From a virus, in IMG/VR virus record IMGVR_UViG_3300003320_000492: a stretch of DNA of 64,000 nt; one strand, given 5' to 3'. The position numbers and the translations under genes were made by a program. Shown piece by piece: positions 62,069 through 64,000 of the stretch (its first letter is position 1; the number at the start of each line of letters is the position of its first letter). Under the pieces are notes generated by a model. That model searched no databases. It was not told the origin of the DNA and saw only the letters and a program-made list of their open reading frames with translations.

Positions 62069-64000
62069 GTGGCATGGTATGACGTATTCCGCACTAATAA
62101 GCGGTCTGCCACTGAAACCAAAACAATTGAGTATGATCCAGAAGTCGGATTGACTCGTGAAGCCTGGAATTCAATGCCTGAGGAATTACGAGCAGTTCTG
62201 CCGTGGAATGTGTATGGAAATGAAGACGAAGGAACCAAAACCAATAGTGGTGTTTATGTAAGCGAGGACTCATCCTTTAAAATGGGTGTCGTATTCGCTG
62301 CAGTTACACTTATTGCTGATGGTGTTGCTTCCCTTCCTCCGCACGCTTTTACGGTTGGGTCAGATGGTAATCGTCAGGAACAAGATGTTCCACAGTGGAT
62401 TCGCTCTCCGCATCCAGAAATTAGACGATTTGATATTTTTAACCAATTGCTAGTTTCTGCATTGACGTGGGGAAATGGATACGCTGCATTTCGTCGTCGT
62501 CCAAGTGACGGAGTAATTGTAGGATTGGATGTATTAGATCCTGCATCGGTTACTGTGGAATGGGACCCCAATAAGGCTGGATTCCGCAGATATAAAGTAA
62601 ATGGCAGTGGACCTTGGTACAGTTCTTATGACATTTTCCACGTACAGGGACCAACTTTACCGGGCGAGGCAAGCGGAATGTCAGTAATCCATTATGCACG
62701 CGAGGCAATTGGATTAGGACTAACTTTAGAGGAATACGGTGCACGCTATTTCGGTCAAGGATCACAAGCCAAGATTGTTTTGGAAATTCCTAACAACGTT
62801 GATGAAGCAAAGGCGAAAGACATTGTCCGTACATTCGAGCGATTCCATAGAGGAAAGAACAACTGGCATCGACCAGCAATTGCATCTGGCGGAGCAAAGA
62901 TTCATCAGATTACTATTCCGCCGGATGATGCACAATTCCTTCAGTCGCGAGAGCACCAGGCCATCGATATTGCTAGATGGTTCCGAGTTCCACCACACAG
63001 AGTCGGAATTGTAAGCGCTTCTACCTCATGGGGTTCCGGATTAGCAGAGCAGAATACTGCAATGCTACAGGGAACTTTTGGACCGTGGATCACGCGCTTA
63101 CAGGATGCCCTAAGTGCTTATGCACCAGGGAATGAGGGATTGGGTACATTTATTGAACTCGATACTTCAGCCTTGCTTATGGGTACCTTCAAAGAATTAT
63201 CTGATACTTGGGTCGGCTTGTTTGAAAAAGATGTAGCGACCAAGAATGAAACTCGAATGAAGTTGGGACTTCCAAAGGTTGCTAAAGGTGATCAATTCTT
63301 TTCCGAGATCGCATCAGCACAACAGCAGGAATTGGCTAAGGTGCAAGGTGATGCAATGTCACAGAATTCTCCTGATAGTCCACCATCTGCACCTAAATCT
63401 AATGCTAATTCTCCTGGTGAGGGTGGACGTACTAAAGAACAGGATCGATTGAGAAAGCAAGAAGAAGCTAAGCGCTCAATTCTAGATATTCTTAATGAGG
63501 AGTTTGAAGCTGCAACCTCTGAAGCGCGATTTAATAAGGTTCATTCTAAGAGTACAGGACAATTTGCTTCTAAAGAAGGAATGTCACCAGCTACTGATGA
63601 AAGTAAGGCTCGCTATAAGGAATTAACTGGTAAGTCTATTCCTCCTGCGTGGACTGATGTTCAAATTGCCGATAACCTAGAAACTGCTGATTTGCAGGTT
63701 TTAGGACGTGATTCAAAAGGTCGTCGTCAGGCTTGGTATTCAAAGGAACATACAGCCCGTCAGGCTGAAAAGAAATTCCAGCGTAATAAGGAATTGCAGC
63801 CACATCTAGGAAAGTTGGATGCAGCATTAGAACGTGACGCATTAACTAGTGATGAAGCAGGAGCTTTGACACTAATTAGAAGAATGGGAATGAGACCAGG
63901 ATCTAATGCCAATCGTGGTGCAAAGGTTCAGGCACATGGTGCGACTAATCTAAAAGCAAAACACGTAAGTTTCAATGACGATGGCTCTGCAACCCTTGAC
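62069..64000 (+). CDS. portal protein (HK97-type) continuing into a type IB topoisomerase-like domain; 3'-truncated by window edge
   Basis: GTG start after AGGGGGG. Portal motifs (SVIHYAREAIGLGL, DDAQFLQSREHQAIDIARWFRVPPHRVG), a low-complexity linker, then GRDSKGRRQAWYSKEH and GATNLKAKHV. No stop before nt 64000. Confidence 0.75.
   Translation, partial: MAWYDVFRTNKRSATETKTIEYDPEVGLTREAWNSMPEELRAVLPWNVYGNEDEGTKTNSGVYVSEDSSFKMGVVFAAVTLIADGVASLPPHAFTVGSDGNRQEQDVPQWIRSPHPEIRRFDIFNQLLVSALTWGNGYAAFRRRPSDGVIVGLDVLDPASVTVEWDPNKAGFRRYKVNGSGPWYSSYDIFHVQGPTLPGEASGMSVIHYAREAIGLGLTLEEYGARYFGQGSQAKIVLEIPNNVDEAKAKDIVRTFERFHRGKNNWHRPAIASGGAKIHQITIPPDDAQFLQSREHQAIDIARWFRVPPHRVGIVSASTSWGSGLAEQNTAMLQGTFGPWITRLQDALSAYAPGNEGLGTFIELDTSALLMGTFKELSDTWVGLFEKDVATKNETRMKLGLPKVAKGDQFFSEIASAQQQELAKVQGDAMSQNSPDSPPSAPKSNANSPGEGGRTKEQDRLRKQEEAKRSILDILNEEFEAATSEARFNKVHSKSTGQFASKEGMSPATDESKARYKELTGKSIPPAWTDVQIADNLETADLQVLGRDSKGRRQAWYSKEHTARQAEKKFQRNKELQPHLGKLDAALERDALTSDEAGALTLIRRMGMRPGSNANRGAKVQAHGATNLKAKHVSFNDDGSATLD

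Follow-up and report, generated by a model that had tools for sequence, protein, structure and literature searches.

Why would a phage portal protein continue, in a single reading frame, into a type IB topoisomerase (TopIB)? The question is raised by the gene that runs off the end of a 64,000-nucleotide (nt) stretch of viral DNA, IMG/VR record IMGVR_UViG_3300003320_000492. We call the whole of this analysed stretch the window. A preliminary description made from its sequence had read the gene as an HK97-type portal fused in frame to a TopIB-like domain. This fusion is borne out by profile searches, by alignment with the catalytic residues of known enzymes, by structure prediction with fold search, and by its recurrence in 46 proteins. 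As to what the enzyme does there, we lean towards a role as cargo of the capsid.

Continuity of the fusion gene

Translation from GTG 62069 gives 644 codons up to the window end with no stop, as had been claimed, and the frame is constant, positions 62069 and 63290 both being 2 mod 3. Upstream of this GTG, the gene of the large terminase (TerL) ends with TAG at 62055-62057 and is followed by the G-rich stretch GGGGGTAGATC. GTG is also used as start by relatives of the fusion gene, and the start at 62069 is sound. The two TopIB-like peptides quoted in the preliminary description, LQVLGRDSKGRRQAWYSKEHTARQAEKKFQRNKEL (amino acids (aa) 541-575) and MRPGSNANRGAKVQAHGATNLKAKHVSF (aa 608-635), and the low-complexity linker SPDSPPSAPKSNANSPGEGG (aa 433-452) are all present in the translation.

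The sequence downstream of the window was obtained from L007, a 6.9-kb contig of the JGI soil metagenome 3300003324, which was reached via exact look-up of the neighbouring endonuclease VII protein; the same look-up also gave L008, a Logan assembly. L007 is identical with the window at 4,448 of 4,448 overlapping bases and extends beyond the window end. It supplies the remaining 130 residues of the protein, including K648, R707, N748 and Y757, and residues 645-774 are known from this contig, not from the window.

There were 45 other distinct portal-TopIB proteins in a big protein collection. They show 59-92% identity and are 720-781 aa long, each in one frame, except that P0034 is a 636-aa fragment among otherwise full-length proteins. 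They derive from independent JGI, ENA, Logan and NCBI assemblies, with contigs of up to 83 kb. IMG/VR holds ten loci of the fusion.

Two adjacent genes might have been joined through a sequencing or assembly error. A one-base frame break does occur in the adjoining TerL gene of the same contig, and one member of the cluster of P0001 (a relative 92% identical to the window protein) is seen as separate calls on one 16.6-kb JGI contig, the 263-aa "portal" P0169 and the 349-aa "topoisomerase IB" P0170. This split could be either natural fission or an assembly frameshift. Against an artefact, two assemblies are identical across the region, conservation and purifying selection extend to the linker, and the 45 further proteins, down to 59% identity and from other samples and assemblers, keep the same continuous architecture, which answers the worry about a hidden frameshift. 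We consider the probability of an artefact negligible.

Recoding to a short portal isoform was also considered and rejected, the linkers of the six genes examined containing no in-frame slippery heptamer. Because the linker has no recoding signal, each portal subunit is made with the enzyme attached.

Portal part and linker

The preliminary description had counted about 420 aa as HK97-type portal, in agreement with the Pfam, NCBIfam and structural results. Phage_portal (PF04860) matched the window fragment with E=1.7e-66 and the complete protein with 225 bits (cutoff 39.1), and the NCBIfam equivalog portal_HK97 (TIGR01537) matched the complete protein with 173.8 bits (cutoff 112). PHROGs also assigned the N-terminal part of the window fragment to portal. 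An AlphaFold2 (AF2) model was built for P0001 on a 96-sequence alignment, and a Foldseek search of the PDB with its N-terminal half found the HK97 portal 8cez (E=3.9e-18). The crown helix lies at about aa 411-432 in this model. The portal gene begins at 62069, shortly after the end of TerL at 62057, in the usual order of TerL then portal, and no second portal gene was seen in the head modules examined.

By its membership of the HK97-portal family, the protein would be expected to sit at a single capsid vertex as a dodecamer. In portals of the HK97 type the C-terminus (crown) points into the capsid interior, so up to 12 TopIB copies would sit inside the head, just above the DNA channel. It had been proposed that 12 copies are placed at the DNA exit channel. 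The number stands as an upper value, but established portal architecture moves the place to the inside of the head above the channel, not the outer exit.

The linker of about 85 aa consists of the Ser/Pro low-complexity stretch (aa 433-452), a conserved basic helix GGRTKEQDRLRKQEEAKRS and an acidic stretch, in this order. Conservation across the 46 fusion proteins is lowest here (0.34-0.67), and the AF2 model shows the linker as mostly disordered, with a predicted local distance difference test score (pLDDT) <50 at 436-448 and 476-494 of P0001. Compared with the DNA of L001, a relative 92% identical, the ratio of nonsynonymous to synonymous substitution rates (dN/dS) was 0.044 for the portal, 0.097 for the linker and 0.032 for TopIB. 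Purifying selection on TopIB is as strong as that on the portal.

Topoisomerase part

The start of the topoisomerase part (aa 508-548) fell just short of the threshold for the bacterial N-domain Top1B_N_bact (PF21338), with 24.6-26.7 bits against a cutoff of 27, though in correct position and order. The fragment of the catalytic domain inside the window (aa 564-640) matched positions 7-87 of the 228 in Topoisom_I (PF01028) with 17.6-20.5 bits (cutoff 23.7), which is sub-threshold because the window cuts the domain; the complete 774-aa protein reached 58.0 bits against the same cutoff. A phmmer search with the C-terminal 288 aa of P0001 matched the TopIB of Deinococcus radiodurans (DraTopIB, 2f4q) with E=5.8e-10, the best sequence match among solved structures, and variola TopIB (2h7f) with E=5.8e-8, end to end. 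For the N-domain region, alignments were obtained both to the vaccinia N-domain 1vcc and to the full-length TopIB of variola and of D. radiodurans.

In the phmmer alignments of the P0001 module, the query residues R, K, R, N and Y pair with R137/K174/R239/N280/Y289 of DraTopIB and R130/K167/R223/H265/Y274 of the variola enzyme. The alignment counts agree with the catalytic residue numbers of the two reference enzymes in the Shuman-laboratory literature. In window-protein numbering the catalytic pentad is R609-K648-R707-N748-Y757. Only R609 is inside the window, and 46 of 46 fusion proteins have the pentad unchanged.

The TopIB module was modelled with pLDDT 92-98 (aa ~510-778 of P0001). The fold search led to TopIB enzymes as well: with the C-terminal half, Foldseek placed the variola TopIB-DNA structure 2h7f first (E=5.8e-13, template modelling (TM) score 0.65 over the target, 282 columns), and further matches were 3m4a and 2f4q (2-3e-11) and human Top1 (~1e-10). 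A tyrosine recombinase or phage integrase was rejected: the sequence and structure matches are TopIB-specific, and the profile search of the fusion protein gave no Phage_integrase family match at E<=0.1. TopIB enzymes relax supercoils without ATP or Mg2+ via a 3'-phosphotyrosyl intermediate. Judged from sequence and model, the module is complete, looks functional rather than a relic, and is apparently active.

Other carriers of the module

An exhaustive TopIB profile search of 1.84 billion representative proteins (50%-identity clusters), which we call the census, gave 10,652 matches at E<=1e-3 and 2,379 at E<=1e-30. Figures for close relatives refer to 138 new proteins among the best 150 of the 10,652 matches, all with E<1e-89. 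Most of these closest 150 matches were fused to portal, MuF or multi-effector proteins. A long N-terminal extension was present in 99 of the 138, the LGN...Y / SYIxP signature in 138 of 138, and TopIB stood at the extreme C-terminus in 110 of the 131 proteins with a locatable KD[LFIMV]R[TSK] catalytic motif. The longest census proteins reach 2,320 aa.

A Pfam scan of the 100 longest census relatives showed which domains accompany TopIB. Head proteins were represented by Phage_Mu_F (12 proteins), Phage_portal_3 (10), Portal_Mu (3), the HK97-type Phage_portal (1) and the lambda-type Phage_portal_2 (1), the four portal families together making 15 of the 100; one further protein had TopIB beside a Mu-like prohead protease domain. 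The other partners were ADP-ribosyltransferase (ART, 7 proteins), 2H phosphoesterase (about 6), InPase (5), NUDIX (3), Zeta toxin (2) and anti-CBASS Acb1 (1).

Portal-free versions were found by searching with the TopIB module alone. Locus L010 has the order TerL, portal (phrog_776), MuF-TopIB fusion, which is the gp6-gp7 arrangement of phage SPP1, and its TopIB module is about 50% identical to that of the window. In L012 and L013, TopIB has a gene of its own, which lies between a portal-MuF fusion and the capsid gene and adjoins those of proteins of 1,455 and 1,479 aa with 2H-phosphoesterase-type domains.

The module therefore appears to be mobile, recurring on other carriers beside domains typical of packaged effectors. 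On these comparisons the portal-TopIB protein is one architecture of a very large family carried on MuF, portals and multi-effector proteins. Because the same module sits on MuF, on other portals and on multi-effector proteins, a portal-specific device becomes less likely and packaged cargo more.

The annotated phages of INPHARED contained no DNA match to the window and no protein match for its 207-aa fragment. The full TopIB module matched only stand-alone TopIB genes there, at about 25% identity, so that no isolated phage in INPHARED has the fusion. A single-protein scan of 185,579 GTDB species-representative genomes, with a reach of close relatives, gave no relative; it means that the phage is not a prophage of a represented species.

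A tag ahead of the C-terminal modules

At the end of the linker, just ahead of the TopIB module, we noticed the peptide RFNKVHSKSTGQFAS, whose consensus in the fusion proteins is RFNKxHSKxxGQFA and which we call the boundary tag. Related portals (P0046, P0047 and others), 56-70% identical in the portal part, carry other C-terminal modules after the same linker and tag. DUF7178 (PF23802) is the C-terminal module in many of them, and the modules of P0046, three in number, are unannotated. A peptide of this kind marks the portal/cargo boundary in the portals with DUF7178 and with other modules, and it occurs three times in the three-module P0046. Evidently, modules are exchanged at the portal tail, which is a swap site for cargo.

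In other lineages the tag takes the form [FW]xExxHPRDxxGxF and is found 54 times in the 138 census proteins, where residue shuffles give 5.5. It is also found at the N-terminus of a 261-aa protein of L001, two genes past the portal, and the genome of the window itself encodes, past the portal, a protein of at least 610 aa in which the form NPxHDKxGKFA occurs three times. The terminase, protease, capsid and tail proteins lack the tag, and our literature searches found no description of it. By analogy with the capsid-targeting sequence of T4, we propose that it may be a capsid-targeting and/or processing signal ahead of each cargo module.

Role of the enzyme

We favour, with modest confidence, the reading that TopIB is a capsid cargo, which would be released during maturation, delivered with the genome, and relax the incoming DNA before phage gene expression. 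The portal would be the vehicle that carries the enzyme into the procapsid. During head maturation TopIB would then be detached from the flexible tail, the likeliest way being a cut in or close to the tag, and a candidate for the protease is the S78 prohead protease, whose gene lies a few genes downstream of the portal in L001. The enzyme would exit with the genome and act in the cell ahead of any phage gene expression, where it could relax both positive and negative supercoils, needing neither ATP nor Mg2+, on DNA under torsional constraint while still leaving the capsid and being transcribed. The TopIB of poxviruses, which is packaged in the virion core and supports early transcription, is the model for this reading. 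In its favour, the partner domains ART, Acb1, NUDIX and 2H can act only in the host cytoplasm, and the partner domains of TopIB are the repertoire of phage-type polyvalent proteins.

Several points weigh against cargo. Cleavage, release and ejection are inferred steps, portals are stable parts of the virion which are not ejected, and a folded 31-kDa clamp must unfold to pass the tail channel. The tag could be a docking peptide instead of a cleavage site, or a relic of gene fusion. An enzyme acting at the portal would explain equally well why TopIB has been joined, repeatedly and independently, to portals and to MuF, which binds the portal. Iyer et al. (2021) classed the TopIB of Motura, phiRSL1, Lu11 and PaBG with DNA-topology functions (PMC7824862), and virion proteomics of PaBG, which is shallow (14 proteins/Coomassie bands), gives no sign of TopIB.

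The main rival, which we regard as doubtful, is that TopIB stays on the portal crown and clamps the passing genome or its end, and there relieves the twist of packaging and of ejection, or holds the last-ejected end. This is close to the idea of the preliminary description. MuF of SPP1 (gp7) is reported to hold the last-ejected DNA end. An enzyme on every portal subunit, made with no recoding, would suit such a resident swivel or anchor, as would its independent fusion to at least four portal families and to MuF. With its flexible tether of about 85 aa the clamp could reach DNA lying on the channel axis, and the lack of any need for ATP or Mg2+ means that it could work inside the capsid. However, the same module ends proteins of 1,000-2,300 aa with ART, Acb1, NUDIX and 2H domains, whose substrates are cytoplasmic, and in L012 and L013 it is a separate, untethered gene. 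Nicking and resealing of fast-translocating or densely packed DNA would risk trapped covalent complexes, and most phages package their DNA without such an enzyme.

Covalent chemistry at the genome end was considered in two forms. In one, which is improbable, TopIB on or just off the crown would link covalently by a 3'-phosphotyrosyl bond to the genome end, anchor or cap it inside the head, and after ejection shield it from exonucleases or reseal it to the opposite end in a TOPO-type circularisation free of cofactors. In the other, quite improbable, the enzyme would cleave near the end and stay bound by 3'-phosphotyrosine, so as to cap the end against RecBCD-type exonucleases or to circularise the genome with neither ligase nor cofactors. 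Vaccinia TopIB stays covalently bound on suicide substrates and in TOPO cloning, and joins 5'-OH ends. Conservation of the tyrosine and the other four pentad residues is strict, the extreme C-terminal placement on long tethers would suit gripping a DNA end, and the portal is where DNA ends are. We know of no precedent for genome-end chemistry by TopIB in phages, which counts against it. CCCTT, the target of the poxvirus enzyme and DraTopIB, was unremarkable in the window under a third-order Markov model (z=-0.9, rank 124/512), though the target of this enzyme may differ. Compared with dinucleotide shuffles, CCCTT was depleted (91 observed, 119±10 expected), but the depletion vanishes under the third-order model, and its strand bias merely tracks gene orientation.

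It is very unlikely that the enzyme is an ordinary replication or recombination topoisomerase which was neutrally fused to the portal, has no virion role and acts late on replicating DNA. The window phage has its own replication set (a family A DNA polymerase, a helicase-type ATPase and a ribonucleotide reductase), and stand-alone TopIB of jumbo phages has been grouped with DNA-topology functions (Iyer et al. 2021). Against this, close relatives of the module lie in the head module between portal and capsid gene in every context examined, its partners are overwhelmingly head-internal proteins and packaged effectors, and a neutral fusion would not recur over four portal families. A catalytically inert DNA clamp, that is, a TopIB-derived plug or spool nucleus inside the head, has parallels in SPP1 gp7 and other head-internal proteins that bind DNA without catalysis (PMC5576092), yet it is scarcely credible with all five catalytic residues invariant in the fusion proteins, the LGN...Y / SYIxP signature in every one of the close census relatives, and a dN/dS of 0.03 for TopIB.

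Comparison with known systems

Iyer, Burroughs, Anand, de Souza and Aravind (2017, J Bacteriol; PMC5512222) interpreted portal and MuF fusions to PBECR, 2H and InPase domains as packaged, injected effectors, and Jamet et al. (2017; PMC5576092) surveyed MuF polymorphic toxins. The portal-TopIB protein shares with these polyvalent proteins and MuF toxins an N-terminal head-internal carrier, a C-terminal enzyme and a gene in the packaging/head module. Modules of the window type also co-occur with ART, 2H, InPase, NUDIX, Zeta toxin and MuF. However, a type IB topoisomerase is not among the cargo domains of these surveys (PMC5512222, PMC5576092), and a conserved tag ahead of the modules is not described in them. 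The cargo here is a DNA-topology enzyme instead of a toxin, a nuclease or a nucleotide-degrading enzyme.

Poxvirus TopIB (2h7f, 3igc, 1vcc) has the same two-domain fold, a size of ~270-314 aa and four of the five catalytic residues in common with the module. It differs in that identity is only about 25% and the fourth pentad residue is His, whereas it is Asn here, as in the bacterial type. Moreover, it lies free in the core rather than on a structural protein, and belongs to another host domain and virion type. Bacterial TopIB (D. radiodurans 2f4q, 3m4a) and mimivirus TopIB share the R-K-R-N-Y pentad and, on a hit just below its cutoff, apparently the bacterial-type N-domain (PF21338). These are stand-alone cellular proteins, whereas the phage modules form their own large group, mostly in long phage-type architectures.

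Among tailed phages, the TopIB catalytic domain is shared with the jumbo phages Motura, NCTB, phiRSL1, Lu11 and PaBG (PMC7824862). PaBG TopIB is 562 aa long with the TopIB part C-terminal, and its gene precedes that of the major capsid protein by about 4 kb. The jumbo-phage enzymes are about 25% identical to the window's module and have no portal or MuF fusion, and no virion association has been reported for them. T4 IPI-III and Alt and SPP1 gp7 enter the procapsid by a short targeting peptide or by portal binding, and are delivered with the DNA or act on it. The tag here is in an equivalent place ahead of each cargo module, which would be analogous. These internal proteins have no sequence relationship to the proteins here, and targeting by the tag, or cleavage at it, is our proposal.

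The preliminary description knew of no report of a portal-TopIB fusion, which agrees with our literature searches. We found no description of TopIB as a widespread capsid-associated module on portals, MuF and multi-effector proteins. The ingredients are known, namely portal-effector fusions, jumbo-phage TopIB genes and poxvirus virion TopIB; what is new, in the literature searched, is their combination.

Genome and head module

The window phage is uncultured, comes from a soil metagenome, has 43.8% G+C and looks lytic. It encodes a class II ribonucleotide reductase, a family A DNA polymerase (PolA), a helicase-type ATPase and a GH25 lysin. Table 1 gives the coordinates of the features.

Table 1. 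Features of the window and its continuation, in window positions
Feature	Position	Strand	Remarks
tRNA array	22829..48607	-	32 tRNA genes (ARAGORN); almost all amino acids; small open reading frames (ORFs) interspersed
DUF2828 + DUF7788 protein	25280..26755	-	491 aa; Ro60/TROVE-like; in the middle of the tRNA array
Small terminase (TerS)	57836..58372	+	phrog_83, E=2e-36; start of head module
Papain-like cysteine peptidase	58656..59438	+	Peptidase_C1, 260 aa; between TerS and TerL
Acb5-matching product	~59570..59782	+	70 aa; Pfam Acb5 (PF26761); L008 1999-2211
Endonuclease VII	59877..60344	+	155 aa; PF02945; directly upstream of TerL
Large terminase (TerL)	60350..62057	+	directly upstream of portal; Pfam, PHROGs; frame break near 60635
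Portal-TopIB fusion gene	62069..64000	+	first 1,932 of 2,325 nt; window-equivalent end 64393, 774 aa (from L007)
HK97-type portal body	62069..63328	+	aa 1-420; Pfam Phage_portal aa 74-400
Linker	63329..63583	+	aa 421-505
Boundary tag	63527..63571	+	aa 487-501
TopIB N-terminal beta-sheet domain	63584..63748	+	aa ~506-560; IPPAWTDV...LGRDSKGRRQAWYS
TopIB catalytic domain, start	63749..64000	+	aa 561-644, cut by window end; R609 codon 63893-63895
Protein after the portal	~64629..66458		at least 610 aa; L007 5077-6906

The gene order downstream of the portal, with protease and capsid, was read from L001. Its head module contains TerS, the papain-like peptidase, TerL, portal-TopIB, four small genes, the S78 prohead protease, an HK97-fold capsid and tail genes. 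Peptidase_S78 and Phage_capsid genes also lie downstream of the portal in relatives. The papain-like peptidase is kept in relatives and is unusually placed, and it is a second candidate, besides S78, for the processing of head proteins.

The last segment of the protein of at least 610 aa matches the N-terminus of the 261-aa protein of L001 (12645-13430), so several cargo modules are apparently fused in one protein here and separate in relatives. Pfam and PHROGs gave no match for the neighbouring proteins of 74-75 aa, 261 aa, 215 aa and at least 610 aa.

The TerL gene of the window is split into ORFs of 101 aa and 477-502 aa by an extra A in an A-run (60633-60638). The window reads CGAAAAACAGG, against AAG-AAAACAAGG in L001, whose TerL is single with 569 aa. 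The same break is seen in a JGI and a Logan assembly, and it could be a real +1 shift needing recoding, a defective variant or an error of a shared read set. The endonuclease VII gene is absent from this position in L001 and so looks like an insertion of homing-endonuclease type. The Acb5-matching product, which neighbours a 51-aa product with DUF7218, may represent a small counter-defence gene upstream of the packaging genes. The 32 tRNA genes are unusually many for a phage with related contigs of about 75-83 kb.

Meaning of the fusion

The fusion adds a DNA-topology enzyme to the proteins that tailed phages incorporate into their heads, so far known for toxins, nucleases, anti-restriction proteins and nucleotide-degrading domains. 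To our knowledge, a virion-packaged TopIB has so far been a hallmark of poxviruses. The parallel with poxviruses makes it possible to test whether incoming viral DNA needs a cofactor-independent swivel before viral gene expression, or, alternatively, whether the packaging or ejection machinery itself needs one. The tag may also be of use as a signal for capsid targeting or processing.

Thousands of 50%-identity clusters are related to the module, which suggests that it is common in nature though absent from the literature searched. Forterre and Gadelle (2009) knew viral TopIB only from poxviruses and mimivirus, and postulated an unknown viral source of bacterial TopIB (PMC2647321). A candidate for this source is the large phage TopIB group, whose pentad has the Asn of the bacterial type, and an origin of bacterial TopIB in this phage group is open to test by phylogeny.

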